DNA of 40,400 bases from Actinomycetota bacterium (lineage in GTDB: Bacteria > Actinomycetota > Thermoleophilia > Gaiellales > Gaiellaceae), in assembly GCA_019237315.1 (NCBI GenBank), contig JAFAHG010000192.1:1-40400 (forward strand), in the 5' to 3' direction. The position numbers and the translations under genes are program-made. The notes beneath the pieces were generated by a model that worked only from the letters and a program-made list of their open reading frames with translations, searched no databases and was not told where the DNA came from. Every line of letters begins with the position of its first letter. Within the stretch, counting starts at the first letter, position 1. Of this stretch, positions 403 through 15,242 are shown piece by piece.

Positions 403-804
403 GTGGGGGATACCGGCCCGATCCGCGTCCTCGTCTGCGATGACTCGCCGACGTTCGCGGCAGGCTTGCGCCGCCTCCTCGAGCACGAGCCCGAGATCGA
501 GGTCGTCGGCGTCCGCGGCTCGGCCGAGGAGGCGATCGCCGCGGTTCCCGAGCTCGCTCCCGACCTCGTGACGATGGACGTGGAGCTACCCGGGATGAAC
601 GGGCTCGACGCCGTCCAGCGGATCATGCGGGAGCACCCGGTGCCGATCCTCGTCCTCTCCTCGCGGACGACGGTGGCCGAGGCGGCGCTTGCCGCCGGCG
701 CGGTCGCCGCGCTCGCGAAGGACGAGGTCGCGCTGCGAGAGCCGGACGGAGACGCCGCGACGGCCCTCCGGCGCCGGCTCCGCACCCTCGCCGGCCGGGC
801 CTGA
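403..804 (+). CDS. stand-alone response-regulator receiver domain, CheB-N-terminal-like, with no methylesterase domain
   Basis: In frame with track ORF 238..804. [81 protein letters not shown] matches the CheB receiver pattern (DD pair, phospho-Asp in TMDVELP). The protein ends about 50 aa later. Start is GTG 403 (alternative TTG 391); the upstream ORF portion is Arg/Ser-rich junk. Confidence 0.75.
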
Positions 805-841
805 CGGCAGGAGAGGCGTAGGCTCCCGCGAAGGATTCGCA

Positions 842-2290
842 ATGCTCGGCCACGATCCCGGCCTTCGCCGGGGCGTTCACGCCCGCGGCCCCGCACGCAG
901 GATTCTGATCGCCACGGCGGTCGTCGTCCCGCTCATCGCCATCGCCTTCGGCGTCTCCATCTGGCGTGACTACAACGCGGCCGCCAAGCGCGACCAGTCG
1001 ACTCGCTCCGCCAACCAGCAGCTGACCGCACAGGTCGCCGTCAACGCCTTCCTGCGCGAGCGCGAGGCGATGGACGAGTACATGCTCACCGCGAACATCG
1101 CGTCGCTGACGACGATCGGCAACTCGAGCGTCGAGTTCAACACGGCGATGCAGTCGCTCAAGCCGTCCGCGCCCGGCGAGGCCGCACTCATCCAGCGCGC
1201 CCAGGCCGCGAACGACGCGTTCGTCGCCGACTTCCGGCGTCACGAGGGAGCCGCCCGCACGAACGTCGTCGCCGAGGAGTCGGCGATCGCCGAGCTGAAC
1301 ACGCACGAGCCGAGCGTCGTCGGCTCCCTCGCGTCGCTCCAGCAGATCTACGGAGACGAGGCGACGAACCGTAGCTCTGCCGCCGCGAGCGCGCGAACCG
1401 AGTCGAGGATCGCGAGCCTCGTTGCCGCGATCGTCTCCATCGTGGCCGCGATCGGCTTCGCCGTCTACGCGCTCACGCTCGTCGCGCGGGTCGGCTCGCG
1501 CGAAGCAAGCCTCGCGGAGCTCGTGCACCGGGTGCACGACACGTCGGGGATTCTCGCGCTCGTCGCCAACGAGCTGCGCGCGGCCGTCAAGCAGTCCGCA
1601 ACCGCGACGACGCAGCAGTCGACGGCGGTCGCCGAGACGTCCGCGACGATCGAGCGGCTCGCGGCCGCCGCGACAGCGATCGCGGACAACGCGCACGCAG
1701 TTTCGGCAGCGGCCGAGCAGACCGGTGCGACGATGCGGCACATGCAGGAGCAGGTCGAGACGATCGCAGCGCGGTCGGCCTCGCTCGGCGAGCGCTCGCA
1801 GAGGATCGGCGAGATCCTGGCGCTGATCAACGAGCTCGCCGAGCAGACGAACCTCCTTGCGCTGAACGCCGCGATCGAGGCGGCGCGCGCCGGAGAGGCG
1901 GGCAAGGGGTTCGCGGTCGTCGCCTCCGAGGTGCGCAAGCTCGCCGAGCGCTCGATCCGCTCGACAGACTCGATCCGCGACATCATCGCCGACGTCCAGC
2001 AGGAGACGAGCGCGACGATCACCGCGACCGAGGCGGGCTCGCGGCAGGCACGCGAGGTCGGACAGCTGATGACCGAGACGACGAGGATGCTCGAGGAGTC
2101 GATCCGCGCCACGCAGCAGCAGAAGGCGGCCGCCGACCAGGTCGCCGCCGCGATGGTGCAGATCCGCGAGTCGGCGCTCGCGCTCGTCGCCGAGGCCGAG
2201 CAGCGCGCGAACACCGCCGCGCGGGTCGAGGAGCTCGCCGCCGAGCTCGAGCGGACGCTCGCCGGCGGCAACGGAGCGGGGCCGCGTTGA
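842..2290 (+). CDS. methyl-accepting chemotaxis protein (two TM helices, about 155-aa extracytoplasmic helical sensor, short signalling domain)
   Basis: Internal ATG 842 of ORF 689..2290 is preceded by GAAGGA. TM helices are [21 protein letters not shown] and [26 protein letters not shown]. The highly conserved hairpin tip [44 protein letters not shown] is present. Confidence 0.9.
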
Positions 2291-2631
2291 GCACCGTGGT
2301 GAGCATCCGCGTGGGCGGCGAGCGCTACGCAGTCCCCGTGGAGAACGTCCGTGAGATCGCCGACTTCGGTCTCGTCGCGGCGTTGCCCGGTGCCGGACCG
2401 GCGGTGCTCGGCGTCCGCAACCTGCGCGGGCAGGTGCTCCCGGTGTTCGACCTCGCGGCGGTGCTGGGCGTCGAGCGGGCGGACGGTCCGCTGCGGATCC
2501 TCGTCGCCGAGGACGGCGGCCGGCGCGCGGGGCTCGCGGTCGACGACGTGACGGATGTCGGTGAGGAGTCCGACGGCGCCACGCGTCTCGCGGCGGCGGA
2601 TCTCTTCGCTGCGCTGGCGCGGACGGCATGA
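2287..2631 (+). CDS. cheW: CheW-like coupling protein
   Basis: 114 aa. [11 protein letters not shown]...[21 protein letters not shown]...LAVDDVTDV matches the CheW fold pattern. The TTG start overlaps the MCP stop (TTGA). Confidence 0.85.
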
Positions 2632-4073
2632 CCGACGCCGAGTTCTTCGAGCTCTTCCGCGACGAGGCGAACGGCCGCCTCGACAACATGGTCGGCTCGC
2701 TGCTCGCGCTCGAGTCGGGCCGCGCGGCGCCGGACGCGGTCGACGCGCTCTTCCGCGACGCCCACTCGATCAAGGGCGGGGCGAGCATGCTCGGCCTCGA
2801 CGACCTGCACGCGCTCGCACACGCGATCGAGGACATCCTGGAAGGCGTGCGCGAGGAGCGCGAGCTGCCGGTCGACCTGACCGACACGCTGCTTCGGGCG
2901 GTCGACGCGATGCGCCGCCAGCTCGCGGGCGAGGAGCAGGGCGCGCCCGAGCTCCTCGACGAGCTCGCACGCCGCAGGGCCGGAATCGACGCGCCGGCTG
3001 CCGCCCCGGAGCCCATCCGGCGCACGATTCGCGTGGCGGCCGAGAAGATCGACCTGCTGCTCGACCTCGTCGGCGAGTCGATCCTGCACCGCCGCCGCCT
3101 CGAGCACGTGCTGGGCGACGAGCGCGTTCGCGAGGACCCGGACGTCGTCGACGAGCTCGACCGCGGCGAGCGGCTGCTCGACGAGCTGAAGGACGCCGCG
3201 ATCTCGATGCGCACGCTTCCGCTCGCGTCGATCACCGGCCCGTTCCCTCGCGCGGTGCGCGACATCGCGCGTGCCCAGGGGAAGGAGGCCGAGCTCAGCA
3301 TCGTCGGCGCAGACACCGAGCTCGACCGCGTCATCCTCGAGAGCCTGTCCGAGCCGCTCGCGCATCTCCTGCGCAACGCCGTCGCCCACGGCATCGAGCC
3401 GTCGGCGCAGCGGATGCGCGCCGGAAAGCACCCGACGGGTCTCGTCGAGCTGCGTGCGCTCCAGCGCGGCAGCGTCGTCGAGATCGTGGTCGCGGACGAC
3501 GGCCGCGGCGTCCCGCCCGAGACGCTCGCGCGTGCGGAGCGCGAGGGGTCGTTGACGGAGGTGCTGACGGCGCCGGGGTTCTCGACCGCGACGACGGTGA
3601 CCGAGCTCTCCGGCCGGGGCGTCGGCCTCGACGTCGTCAAGCGCCACGTCGAGTCGTTCACCGGCTCGCTGGAGGTGCGCAGCGAGGTGGGGAAGGGCAC
3701 GAGCATCGTCATGCTGCTGCCGCTTGCGCTCGCGCTGCTCGAGGTGCTGCTCGTCGAGCGCGGCCGGAACGTGTTCGGGATTCCGCTCGGCAACGTCGAG
3801 CAGGCGCTCGCCGTCCACGGGGTGCTACCCGCGCTGCCGCTCGCGGAGCTCGGCGACACGCCGCCGTCGCCGTCGCGTGCGGTGGTGGTTGCCGCCGCGG
3901 GGCGGAAGGCCGGATTCCTCTGCGACCGTCTGCTCGGCCAGGACGAGGTCGTCGTCAAGCCGCTCGGCCCGCTGCTCGCACGCGTCCGCGGCTACCTCGG
4001 CGCTGCGATCCTCGGCGACGGCCGCGTCGCGCTCCTTCTCGACCCCGCCGCGCTCGTCGCTCGTGCAGTCTGA
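2628..4073 (+). CDS. cheA: chemotaxis-type histidine kinase CheA (P1-P3-P4-P5, no recognisable P2)
   Basis: Hpt site is FRDAHSIKGGASMLG. Dimerisation region is RVAAEKIDLLLDLVGE. N box is HLLRNAVAHGIE, G1 is DDGRGV and G2 is GRGVGLDVV. A C-terminal CheW-like domain is present. ATGA overlap with cheW. Confidence 0.9.
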   Translation: MTDAEFFELFRDEANGRLDNMVGSLLALESGRAAPDAVDALFRDAHSIKGGASMLGLDDLHALAHAIEDILEGVREERELPVDLTDTLLRAVDAMRRQLAGEEQGAPELLDELARRRAGIDAPAAAPEPIRRTIRVAAEKIDLLLDLVGESILHRRRLEHVLGDERVREDPDVVDELDRGERLLDELKDAAISMRTLPLASITGPFPRAVRDIARAQGKEAELSIVGADTELDRVILESLSEPLAHLLRNAVAHGIEPSAQRMRAGKHPTGLVELRALQRGSVVEIVVADDGRGVPPETLARAEREGSLTEVLTAPGFSTATTVTELSGRGVGLDVVKRHVESFTGSLEVRSEVGKGTSIVMLLPLALALLEVLLVERGRNVFGIPLGNVEQALAVHGVLPALPLAELGDTPPSPSRAVVVAAAGRKAGFLCDRLLGQDEVVVKPLGPLLARVRGYLGAAILGDGRVALLLDPAALVARAV

Positions 4074-12854: not shown

Positions 12855-13433
12855 ATGAAGTTCACCCTTTTGGTGGCGCTACTCATCATCGCGGCGCCCG
12901 CCTCGGCGTCGGTCGGCCACCGCGCGGATCCGAAGGCGCTCGTGCTGCAGCTCTCCGATCTCCCGAACGGGTTCGGCCGTGACAGCGGCCGCTACGTCAC
13001 GAACGCACAGCTCGACGCCGAGCGGACGACCCACAAGGACTTCCGGAAGCTCGGTCGGTTGAGCGGCTACTACACCTCGTACTCCGCGATCGCGGTCGGC
13101 GGTGTCACCGAGGTGAGCTCCTTCGCGAGCATCTACAAGCTCGGCACGGGTGCGCATGCGTCGCTCGTGCAGTCGCTCTCGCAGGCCGAGGGGGAGGGCG
13201 GCCTCGAGCTGATCCCCGCGGCCGGACTCTCCCGGCTCGGCACCGACGCGCGCCTCTTCCGTCAGCGTGCATCGCAGAACGGCACGGCGGTCGACTTCTA
13301 CACCGTCGTGTGGCGCGACGGCACCGTGTTCGCGGAGGTCATGGGTGCCGGACGCGCGGGCACCGTCGATCCGGATCAGGTCGTCGCGCTTGCGAAGAAG
13401 CAGGCGACGCGCATCGCGCGCTTGACGAGCTAG
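12855..13433 (+). CDS. hypothetical secreted protein
   Basis: Internal ATG of ORF 12762..13433. Signal peptide is MKFTLLVALLIIAAPASASV. The rest has ordinary globular composition. No family recognised. Confidence 0.6.
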   Translation: MKFTLLVALLIIAAPASASVGHRADPKALVLQLSDLPNGFGRDSGRYVTNAQLDAERTTHKDFRKLGRLSGYYTSYSAIAVGGVTEVSSFASIYKLGTGAHASLVQSLSQAEGEGGLELIPAAGLSRLGTDARLFRQRASQNGTAVDFYTVVWRDGTVFAEVMGAGRAGTVDPDQVVALAKKQATRIARLTS

Positions 13434-13585
13434 CGCAACGTGAGAGGATCGCACCGATCGCGATCCATCACGCAGTTGCCTTCCTGAGCACCGTTCTACG
13501 TCCGATGCGTCTGCCTCAATAGAGCAGGACCAGAGACACATTCCGTCGAATGTCTGGCGGAACCATCTGACCTGGAGGTATCGAC

Positions 13586-14032
13586 ATGCCTGCAGTACCC
13601 AGAAGGAAGGCGTCAGCGAAGAAGTCGACGGCGAAGAAGTCGACGGCGAAGCGCGCGCCTGCGAAGAGAAGCACTGCGAAGAAGTCGACCGCTCGCAAGA
13701 CCACGGCGCGCAAGACCACTGCGCGCAAGAGCACCGCGCGGAAGAGCACGGCCAAGAAGTCGACCGCGCGCAAGTCGACGGCTCGCAAGTCGACCGCCCG
13801 GAAGAAGACGACCGCCCGCAAGACAACGGCGCGGAAGTCGACGGCCCGCAAGTCGACGGCCCGGAAGTCGACGGCCCGCAAGACGACCGGCCGCAAGAAG
13901 ACGACCGCCCGCAAGACCACGGCGCGGAAGTCGACGGCCCGGAAGTCCACGGCCCGCAAGACGACGGCGCGCAAGACGGCCCGCAAGCCGGCCCGTAGGC
14001 CCGCCGCGAAGAGGCGCAGCACGAAGAAGTAG
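13586..14032 (+). CDS. histone-H1-like / polycationic repeat protein made of about 25 tandem [ST]TA[RK]K pentapeptides
   Basis: ATG is preceded by GGAGG at a suitable distance. The sequence runs MPAVPRRKASAKKSTAKKSTAKR...STARKSTARKSTARKKTTARK...RRSTKK. There is no folded domain. Confidence 0.7.
   Translation: MPAVPRRKASAKKSTAKKSTAKRAPAKRSTAKKSTARKTTARKTTARKSTARKSTAKKSTARKSTARKSTARKKTTARKTTARKSTARKSTARKSTARKTTGRKKTTARKTTARKSTARKSTARKTTARKTARKPARRPAAKRRSTKK
13610..14005 (+). repeat. 15-bp-period tandem repeat (coding)
   Basis: Reiterated units such as gcgaagaagtcgacg, gcccgcaagtcgacg and gcgcgcaagaccacg encode the pentapeptide repeats. The antisense ORF is also periodic (AVDFRAVDFR). Confidence 0.85.
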
Positions 14033-14085
14033 AGCGCAGCCGCCGCGGCGTGCTGATTCAGGCGGCTGCAGTCACAGGAACGGCG

Positions 14086-14107
14086 CCGCGCCCCGCGAGG
14101 GGCGCGG
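14086..14107. terminator. GC-rich hairpin between convergent repeat-protein gene and tRNA-Trp
   Basis: CCGCGCCCC-gcga-GGGGCGCGG: 9-bp perfect stem with a 4-nt loop. Confidence 0.5.
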
Positions 14108-14159
14108 CCCGTCCTCTCCGAATCTCTCGCGCGTTCCCGACCGGGTCGCGGTGCGAGCA

Positions 14160-14232
14160 CAGGGGCGGAGGGACTCGAACCCCCAACCCCCGGTTTTGGA
14201 GACCGGTGCTCTGCCAGTTGAGCTACGCCCCT
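14160..14232 (-). tRNA. tRNA-Trp (anticodon CCA)
   Basis: The reverse complement folds as a cloverleaf. Acceptor is AGGGGCG/CGCCCCT. D arm is GCTC-AACTGGCA-GAGC. Anticodon arm is CCGGT-CTCCAAA-ACCGG. T loop is TTCGAGT. Discriminator is G. No CCA is encoded. Confidence 0.9.
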
Positions 14233-14284: not shown

Positions 14285-14452
14285 ATGCTCGCGGCGCTCT
14301 TCACAGTGTTGACCCTCGGCCTCGTCGGCATCGCGGTCGCAGGGGCCCTCGCCGGGGGTGTCCGCGGGTGGGTGGTCGCCGTGGCGGCGGCGGCGATCGC
14401 GGGGTGGATGGCGACGGTGGCGGTCGCGGCCGTGAGGAGAAGGCGCCGCTAG
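14285..14452 (+). CDS. possible small two-TM membrane protein
   Basis: MLAALFTVLTLGLVGIAVAGALAGGVRGWVVAVAAAAIAGWMATVAVAAVRRRRR has high GC3. It ends 16 nt before the sigma-factor start. An alternative TTG start is at 14249. No homology recognised. Confidence 0.35.
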   Translation: MLAALFTVLTLGLVGIAVAGALAGGVRGWVVAVAAAAIAGWMATVAVAAVRRRRR

Positions 14453-14468: not shown

Positions 14469-15242
14469 GTGGCCGGGGAGGCGGAGCTCCAGCGTCTGTG
14501 GCGCGAGTACAGGCGCACGAAGGACCAGGCAGTCCGTGACCGGCTGATCGTCACGTACGCGCCGCTCGTCAAGTACGTCGCGGGCCGGCTCGGCTCGGGT
14601 CTGCCCGCGCACGTCGACGAGGGCGACCTCGTCTCCTACGGCCTCCTCGGCCTGATCGGCGCGATCGAGCGGTACGAGCCCGACCGCGACATCAAGTTCG
14701 AGACCTACGCGATGGCGCGGATCAAGGGGGCGATCATCGACGAGCTGCGCGCGCTCGACTGGGTGCCGCGGTCGGTGCGGTCGCGCGCGCGTGAGATCGA
14801 GCGTGCGATCGCCGAGCTCGAGGCGAAGGTCGGACGTGCGCCGACCGACGAGGAGATCGCGGCCAAGGTCGGCATCTCCGTCGAGGAGCTCGAGGACTCG
14901 CTGACCGACATCTCCCGGTCGTCGATCGCGGCCCTCGACGAGCTCTGGTCCGCGAGCGGCGAAGGCGACCAGATCTCGCTGCTCGACACGATCGAGGACA
15001 CGAGCGGCCCGCGCCCGGCGGACGCCCTCGACGAGACCGAGACGAAGGAGCTCGTCGCCGACGCGATCTCGCGACTGCCGGAACGGGAGAAGCTCGTGGT
15101 CACCCTCTACTACTACGAGGAGCTGACGCTGCGCGAGATCGGCGAGGTGCTCGGCGTGACCGAGTCGCGCGTCTCGCAACTGCATACGAAGGCGGTGCTC
15201 CGCCTGAAGTCGCGCCTGTCCGGCGCCGCCGCGCGCTCTTAA
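14469..15242 (+). CDS. FliA/WhiG-family (sigma-28 group) RNA polymerase sigma factor
   Basis: Region 2: LVKYVAGRL...EGDLVSYGLLGLIGAIERYEPDRDIKFETYAMARIKGAIIDELR. Region 3: EIAAKVGISVEELE. Region 4.2: LTLREIGEVLGVTESRVSQLHTKAVLRLK. Confidence 0.85.
   Translation: MAGEAELQRLWREYRRTKDQAVRDRLIVTYAPLVKYVAGRLGSGLPAHVDEGDLVSYGLLGLIGAIERYEPDRDIKFETYAMARIKGAIIDELRALDWVPRSVRSRAREIERAIAELEAKVGRAPTDEEIAAKVGISVEELEDSLTDISRSSIAALDELWSASGEGDQISLLDTIEDTSGPRPADALDETETKELVADAISRLPEREKLVVTLYYYEELTLREIGEVLGVTESRVSQLHTKAVLRLKSRLSGAAARS

Follow-up and report, generated by a model that had tools for sequence, protein, structure and literature searches.

A free-standing Hc2-like lysine/arginine-repeat protein encoded beside tRNA-Trp in a Gaiellaceae bacterium

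Described polycationic repeat proteins and the window protein

The C-terminal domain of linker histone H1 and the protamines are disordered, highly basic chains whose positive charges neutralise DNA and thereby condense it. Here we describe a gene in a 40-kb stretch of DNA (hereafter the window; 70.9% GC overall) from an uncultured soil bacterium of the Gaiellaceae (Actinomycetota, Thermoleophilia; assembly GCA_019237315.1, contig JAFAHG010000192.1) whose product, the window protein, consists almost entirely of pentamers of the form [ST]TA[RK]K. It lacks the winged-helix domain of linker histones, differs from both linker histone H1 and the protamines in the chemistry of its repeat, and has no evolutionary link to either. 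Among bacterial proteins, such an architecture has been described for the chlamydial histone H1-like protein Hc2, a DNA-binding protein that is made of consecutive pentamers with two basic residues each, arranged in larger elements of pentamers and one hexamer (PMC2848022). The length of Hc2 varies by way of its pentamers, the larger element has been both duplicated and deleted, and Hc2-like proteins are present in Bordetella and Burkholderia (PMC2848022).

The second group of described systems consists of tails on larger proteins. Lysine repeats of the form K1-2(A/T/N)3-5 are characteristic of actinobacterial TopA, where those of the C-terminal domain are required for DNA binding and processivity; such repeats were counted in 554 proteins across 22 Streptomyces proteomes, and DNA-binding proteins are over-represented among them (PMC5714199). 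HupB needs its tail to associate with the nucleoid in vivo (PMC5676037), and that of Ku modulates DNA binding (PMC3553676). Two of these proteins, HupS and HupB, are modified. Acetylation of the HupS tail lowers its affinity for DNA and is reversed by CobB1, and the authors of that work add that acetyl-phosphate-dependent acetylation is favoured by KK doublets with Ser/Thr between them (PMC11229371). For HupB, acetylation, methylation, and phosphorylation are all on record (PMC9599588).

The window protein resembles Hc2 (HctB, with its counterparts in Bordetella (BpH1), Burkholderia, Ralstonia, and Herminiimonas) in being small, free-standing, and composed of consecutive pentamers. As in Hc2-like proteins, each pentamer combines two basic residues with three small ones (A/T/V/P), and the repeat is free of acidic residues. 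Both proteins have a higher-order element of pentamers plus one hexamer, which spans 31 aa in the window protein and 36 aa in Hc2, and in both block duplication changes the length. Unlike Hc2, the window protein has no non-repeat C-terminal domain, as the repeat runs from residue 9 to the end and leaves no non-basic segment, and its unit contains Ser where Hc2 uses mainly Ala, Val, or Pro. Hc2 is also marked by nucleoid condensation and by expression late in development. Because the phyla are unrelated, common descent is doubtful. With the lysine-repeat tails of HupB/Hlp (Mycobacterium), HupS (Streptomyces), TopA, and Ku and the N-terminal repeat of sigma HrdB, the window protein shares disorder and a very high pI, and its repeat unit is literally identical to that of many HU, Ku, and TopA tails from uncultured Actinomycetota. 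In contrast to these tails, the module here makes up the entire protein and is attached to no HU, Ku, or topoisomerase domain, and most units have Arg in place of the first Lys. A further difference is that the tails best studied as models are rich in PAKK/KAAK (PMC5676037, PMC3553676).

We estimate a probability of roughly 0.6 that this is a genuine monocistronic gene for a free-standing Hc2/H1-like lysine/arginine-repeat protein that acts as a non-specific DNA-binding condenser of the nucleoid. The evidence for this reading includes the conservation of the encoded peptide within the array, the match of the product to the Pfam HC2 family, and the occurrence of the same unit as a tail on DNA-binding proteins.

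The repeat gene, its product, and its flanks

The features of the gene are as follows.

13434..13585, plus strand: intergenic leader, the presumed promoter region (152 nt, 57.2% GC)
13574..13578, plus strand: GGAGG ribosome-binding site, read from the sequence, with a 7-nt spacer to the ATG
13586..14032, plus strand: coding sequence of the repeat protein (ATG start, TAG stop, 148 aa, 16.3 kDa)
13616..13978, plus strand: tandem array of 15-bp period that codes for the pentamers (Tandem Repeats Finder)
13775-13867 and 13868-13960, plus strand: two 93-bp blocks of 31 aa each (residues 64-94 and 95-125), from the period-93 array and a block comparison

An earlier note, made from the DNA letters, had drawn attention to this open reading frame (ORF), and its description of the GGAGG site, the MPAVPRRK leader, and the pentapeptide repeats holds. 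The start at 13586 is the first start codon after an in-frame stop, and the ORF cannot be extended upstream. After the leader the peptide consists of 28 units, each ending in basic residues (K/R): nine are STARK, seven TTARK, and three STAKK, alongside single variants such as STARKK, TTGRKK, APAKR, and PAAKRR. The note's figure of about 25 repeats is fair when degenerate units are counted; exact [ST]TA[RK]K units number 20, and exact [ST]TARK units 17. By composition the protein has 35 Lys, 32 Thr, 30 Ala, 27 Arg, 16 Ser, and 5 Pro, with one Met, one Val, and one Gly. It thus carries 62 K+R and 48 S+T with no D/E, for a net charge of about +61.

A repetitive array can be open in more than one frame, and base composition alone is not decisive here: GC at third codon positions (GC3) is 0.91 in the repeat gene and 0.89-0.96 in neighbouring genes, and one antisense frame of the repeat gene has an equal value. 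We therefore compared the 20 exact [ST]TA[RK]K units in all six frames, counting codon differences between pairs of units. In the plus frame, 17 different DNA 15-mers encode only 3 peptides, the pairwise comparison counts 345 synonymous and 142 non-synonymous codon differences, and both TCN and AGC are used for Ser. The five other frames yield 8-18 different peptides. The plus frame is the coding frame of the array, because the peptide is kept while the DNA of the units varies synonymously. An antisense ORF at 13516..14160 was rejected on two grounds: it yields 8 peptides with 297 synonymous against 275 non-synonymous differences, and its start would abut the end of the tRNA-Trp gene.

The 15-bp period named in the earlier note is borne out by Tandem Repeats Finder, which finds 19.4 copies at 13682-13978, with a score of 225, and a further 2.4 perfect copies at 13616-13651. 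A longer period of 93 bp scores higher (384, with 3.2 copies), while every other array in the window scores at most 72. Each of the two 31-aa blocks comprises five pentamers and one hexamer, and the lag-93 autocorrelation of the array is 0.70. The DNA identity of the two blocks is 91.4%, far above the roughly 72% between ordinary adjacent units, which indicates that the blocks are a recent internal duplication. Tandem duplication, the recent one of the 93-bp block included, built up the array. Related tails elsewhere have higher-order periods of their own (AKKSTARKST in L085, KKTAARKTTAR in L097), and because each lineage's tail has its own period, this suggests that tail arrays expand independently, gene by gene.

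The earlier note also expected the copy number of the repeat to vary. Past expansion is evident in the 93-bp duplication, but no present variation was found: the NCBI contig, two JGI contigs, and the Logan contigs of four soil/rhizosphere metagenomes all match the window, and three assemblies are identical. Apparent "joints" at the repeat in metagenome contigs were set aside, as they come from foreign repeat genes rather than from length variants. The exact repeat protein is also encoded, as a called gene, on contig JAFAKP010000272.1 of GCA_019235235.1, the locus is 100% identical on the two JGI metagenome contigs, and soil and rhizosphere metagenomes contain it as well.

AlphaFold2, run on the single sequence, gave no secondary structure (pTM 0.14, pLDDT 50-73), so the protein is predicted to be wholly disordered, with no globular domain, as the earlier note had proposed. 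Pfam HC2 (PF07382) matches residues 7-143 with 69.7 bits against a gathering cut-off of 40 (E 4.8e-19), and beyond it the Pfam scan returned nothing except a sub-threshold match to Extensin. The HU fold (Bac_DNA_binding, PF00216) had no match at E up to 10, and neither a histone fold nor a winged-helix domain was found by Pfam or in the predicted structure. Read against the lysine-repeat definition K1-2(A/T/N)3-5 with at least three repeats, the protein contains 20 units of [RK]K plus [ST]TA, provided that Arg is allowed for the first Lys and Ser among the neutral residues. The NCBIfam model of the Rv3852 family (NF050153) gave 26.8 bits where 100 are required. By architecture the protein is best filed as an Hc2-like or lysine-repeat protein that is an orthologue of no characterised one.

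Three further features bear on how the gene is transcribed.

13446..13466, plus strand: hairpin with a 7-bp stem, just past the stop of the upstream gene 12855-13433, present in both the minimum-free-energy and centroid folds
14036-14069 and 14076-14115, no strand assigned: two strong GC-rich hairpins in the interval between the repeat gene and tRNA-Trp (fold energy -58.4 kcal/mol)
14160..14232, minus strand: tRNA-Trp (CCA), the convergent neighbour and the synteny breakpoint (ARAGORN; Rfam 68.4 bits)

The leader is the most AT-rich part of the window, in agreement with the earlier note; a GC content this low is reached by only 0.2% of 150-nt windows. Neither a sigma-70 consensus promoter nor a match to an Rfam family was found in it. 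We judged hairpins by fold energy against 200 shuffles. The imperfect inverted repeat that the note described in the leader is present, at 13535-13556, but its stability is not above chance (z -0.54; 60/200 shuffles fold equally well). The hairpin at 13446-13466 is likely to be the terminator of the upstream gene, which would make the repeat gene monocistronic. The downstream pair at 14036-14115 is more stable than all 200 shuffles on the plus strand (z -4.05, 0/200) and has z -2.34 on the minus strand; it probably serves as a bidirectional terminator without a U-tract, common to the repeat gene and the convergent tRNA-Trp. The repeat gene is thus probably monocistronic, and its private AT-rich leader suggests that it is regulated separately.

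Relatives of the repeat unit and readings of function

A word-indexed protein search for relatives of the module returned 886 matches. The best 120 are mostly HU-family proteins with a C-terminal tail, named "DNA-binding protein HU-beta" and carrying PF00216 together with PF07382, and 119 of these 120 contain at least three [ST]TA[RK]K units. The earlier note had presented the Ser/Thr-Arg-Lys unit as distinctive with respect to H1-like and HU tails, a claim that this result overturns. It had also stated beforehand that a routine member of an annotated H1-like repeat family with this repeat unit would be "merely a nice example", and by that criterion the protein is one. Many top matches of an exhaustive phmmer search are eukaryotic microsatellite-type ORFs with HGTAR/HSTAQ repeats, which we discarded as irrelevant. 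Six of these (P0121, P0167, P0181, P0188, P0245, and P0250) are HGTAR/HSTAR/HSTAQ-repeat ORFs that resemble translated eukaryotic microsatellites, so a high score to a repeat-protein query is no proof of relatedness.

We also scanned species genomes. Here the unit was found, with Pfam confirmation of the attached domain, on HU (L102), Ku (L128), and topoisomerase I (TopA; L123), and likewise on ribosomal protein L22 (L122), a DksA/TraR zinc-finger protein (L131), and a DUF6582 protein (L086). Reading translated ORFs by eye added Ku-like (L121, L135), L22-like (L109), and DksA-like (L118, L125) carriers. A further match, in PDB entries, is to the basic N-terminal region of the Streptomyces sigma factor HrdB. 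The [ST]TA[RK]K pentamer is thus a polycationic module that uncultured soil bacteria use and reuse very commonly, and is not peculiar to the window gene.

In some genomes the module stands alone. Five free-standing positional orthologues of about 90-186 aa come from one Actinomycetota clade.

Free-standing orthologues: L089:2980-3519, L096:3001-3561, L098:2983-3492, L108:3001-3507, L110:2857-3252

Their gene order is permease, response-regulator-like, WhiB-like, repeat ORF, formiminotransferase-like, with the repeat ORF lying directly downstream of the WhiB-like gene (88% identity) and convergent with the formiminotransferase-like gene. Like the window protein, these WhiB-adjacent proteins are stand-alone and consist of a short Met-Pro/Glu leader followed by S/T-T-A/G-R-K-K units. 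They differ from it in having more hexamers (TGRKK) and more Gly, their length varies between species, and their conserved context has no flanking gene in common with the window gene. As conserved positional orthologues, they are stable genes. Other free-standing all-repeat ORFs, with putative starts read from translated ORFs, were found in Frankiales (L114), Phycisphaerales (L090, L093, L112), Alphaproteobacteria (L087, L088, L099), and a Thaumarchaeota metagenome-assembled genome (MAG; L127).

Binding to nucleic acid and the nucleoid is the most likely reading of the window protein by analogy, because it matches Pfam HC2 and because its unit is the tail module of HU, Ku, and TopA. The idea of a disordered nucleoid-associated polycation, put forward in the earlier note, therefore remains the best one. 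In such a mechanism, the disordered protein, which has a basic doublet (RK or KK) at every fifth residue and no counter-charge, would neutralise backbone phosphates and so bind DNA non-specifically, and probably RNA too. The roughly 62 positive charges could cover about 30 bp, and at a sufficient dose the protein would compact or coat the nucleoid in the manner shown for chlamydial Hc2 and for the lysine-repeat tails of HupB, HupS, TopA, and Ku, and like the H1 C-terminal domain and protamines. DNA binding, compaction, and control by Lys acylation or Ser/Thr phosphorylation are what we infer for the protein. Control by modification is plausible by analogy with the HupB and HupS tails, for which it is already established. 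What the earlier note proposed on DNA binding and modification is sensible, but it restates how such proteins are already understood and is not a new lead.

Several observations weigh against the main reading. HC2 is a low-complexity model, and the match may stem from composition rather than descent; the NCBIfam models of chlamydial Hc2 (NF038052; 68.1 bits, 135 required) and of Burkholderia-type histone H1-like proteins (NF038053; 44.4 bits, 80 required) both failed. The unit is not exclusive to DNA binders, since it also occurs on non-DNA proteins (a SnoaL-type "ester cyclase" and phasin-like proteins). The synonymous pattern records selection in the history of the array and is no proof for the present locus. 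In four RNA runs, no metatranscriptome contig covers the unique flanks; the matches, which come from other organisms, are to repeat-internal 30-45-mers only, after which the sequence is unlike the window. Finally, no basic repeat ORF occupies the tRNA-Trp slot in 80 related genomes, a set of loci found through the neighbouring FliA-type sigma factor, so the protein does not belong to a conserved core set of nucleoid proteins in the family.

Contigs of two rhizosphere metatranscriptome runs, X16 and X21, contain near-identical 30-45-nt pieces of the repeat (window 13600-13999) at assembler depths of up to 568. As these pieces continue into different sequence, they come from the mRNAs of other organisms, and mRNAs with STARK-type tails of other organisms appear to be abundant in rhizosphere samples. 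At the protein level, a tryptic digest would leave pieces of about 4-5 residues, and standard proteomics would be expected to miss such proteins.

The alternative that survives best, although we consider it unlikely, is that the ORF is young and lineage-specific, having arisen by tandem amplification or from a captured tail array, and is weakly expressed or silent with no established function. The missing repeat gene to the left of tRNA-Trp in the 80 relatives, the recent 91%-identical internal duplication, and the lack of RNA on the unique flanks would all be expected in this case, as would the facts that the exact protein turned up on a single contig among public genomes and on two identical contigs from metagenomes and that the upstream 192-aa gene likewise has no relative in 185,579 species genomes. 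A silent ORF would, however, sit poorly with a canonical ribosome-binding site, an AT-rich leader of its own, and strong downstream hairpins. The peptide is moreover strongly kept over synonymous DNA variation, and in another clade of Actinomycetota free-standing genes of this sort are conserved as positional orthologues.

A shade less probable is a polycation that acts mainly on RNA or the ribosome, as a translation repressor or ribosome-associated factor and not as a chromosome compactor. A polycation does not discriminate DNA from RNA, Hc2 has been reported to bind RNA and repress translation (PMC2848022), and in two genomes ribosomal protein L22 carries a KKSTA extension (L109, L122). Against this, most carriers of the unit bind DNA (HU, Ku, TopA, a sigma factor), and the context has no link to ribosome genes, the paralogue of EF-G lying beyond the tRNA and sigma genes.

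It is more doubtful still that the gene encodes a recently born lineage-specific polycation, produced by amplification of the 15-bp unit and then of the 93-bp block in a variable tRNA-Trp slot, that works as a free condenser with its affinity tuned by phosphorylation or acylation. If true, the protein would be a stand-alone, modification-controlled "tail without a histone".

We regard as improbable that the protein binds another polyanion, such as polyphosphate, the surface of polyhydroxybutyrate (PHB) granules, or an envelope polymer, perhaps as a tether rather than as a chromatin protein. Phasin-like proteins with a STARK-type tail are among the matches (P0040, P0004, P0092, P0104), and a paper on PHB-granule proteins of Herbaspirillum came up in connection with H1-like/Hc2 proteins (PMC3783465). 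Such tails are, however, usually read as the DNA-binding end of the tether, and the window protein has no phasin or other targeting domain and no hydrophobic segment resembling a signal peptide.

TARKST corresponds to residues 6-11 of histone H3, and the window protein contains TARKST nine times and ARKS nine times. It shares both motifs with the H3 N-terminal tail, but tandem STARK spells the hexamer automatically, so the match follows from repeat composition and periodicity. Among the best 120 bacterial matches, TARKST occurs in 40 and ARKS in 107. The idea that the protein is a mimic or relative of the H3 tail, subject to reading and writing of the K9/K27 type, is very improbable, since bacterial tails share the hexamer, the protein has no histone fold or other Pfam histone domain, the bacterium lives free in soil and so has no nucleus of a host to act on, and the window genes examined showed none for a reader or writer. 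The likeness is a coincidence of composition without functional weight, as the earlier note had allowed in the absence of other support.

Genomic neighbourhood and significance

The gene order up to the repeat gene is MCP, CheW, CheA, an FtsH-like protease (minus strand), an M48 peptidase, an aldolase-SDR fusion, an NlpC/P60 protein (minus strand), and the 192-aa protein; after it come tRNA-Trp (minus strand), a 55-aa membrane ORF, the sigma factor, and an EF-G paralogue. None of the named neighbours in the window points to DNA metabolism. The best relatives of the FliA-type sigma factor are in Gaiellaceae, Gaiellales, and Thermoleophilia MAGs (75-90% identity). The pair of tRNA-Trp and sigma factor is conserved in the 80 related genomes, while the other side of the tRNA differs; in L002, for instance, the slot holds a pilin-like gene. 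On this comparison, the position of the repeat gene is specific to its lineage. A mobile-element origin was rejected: the window has no att-like tRNA-Trp fragment, no PHROG match was found, and no integrase is among the called neighbours.

12855-13433: upstream gene for a 192-aa protein with a signal-peptide-like N-terminus (MKFTLLVALLIIAAPASA)

Neither Pfam nor PHROG matched this upstream protein, and a search of 185,579 species genomes found no relative.

The tRNA-Trp slot is filled by a different low-complexity gene in L013 (3488-4549, minus strand) and L012 (3904-4314), which encodes a 353-aa Glu/Ala/Arg-rich repeat protein (AEAAAQREAEERARIEAE...). The position beside tRNA-Trp thus seems to collect repeat genes.

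On the far side of the tRNA, a 55-aa hydrophobic ORF that ends in RRRRR (window 14285-14452) lies 16 nt before the sigma-factor gene. It has no Pfam match and might encode a small membrane partner of the sigma factor. MCP, CheW, and CheA are encoded at 689-4073, and a FliA/WhiG-type sigma factor (Sigma70 r2/r3/r4) at 14469-15242; such genes are a sign that this Gaiellaceae lineage is chemotactic and motile.

Two other protein families with related tails came out of the scan of species genomes.

Conserved Gaiellales protein, acidic N-terminal head fused to a STARK-type tail: L084:2692-3363, L085:2692-3576, L097:2500-3228, L104:2608-3396
Dormibacteraeota/Acidiferrales protein: L082:2860-3648, L083:2812-3627, L094:2860-3675, L095:2860-3624, L101:2860-3609

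The Gaiellales protein has an acidic, Ser-rich head (MTQEDWSG...) and a long STARK/STAKK tail, with HC2 as its only Pfam domain. Its context is fixed (CcdA-like, 7Fe-type ferredoxin-like, the protein itself, VOC/glyoxalase-like, FAD oxidoreductase; neighbours named by eye). The window repeat gene has neither the acidic head nor this gene context. The second family, in MAGs labelled Dormibacteraeota and Acidiferrales, has a basic, coiled-coil-like N-terminus of 71 aa that is 98.6% identical across five species representatives, followed by a TAKRA/TTARK tail of variable length; the whole protein measures 249-271 aa.

What is new at this locus is a free-standing, lineage-specific protein, whereas its kind is already known and widespread. 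If expressed, it would add a free-standing example to the lysine/arginine-repeat modules carried by HU, Ku, TopA, and sigma factors, in a class, Thermoleophilia, that has almost no experimental biology.

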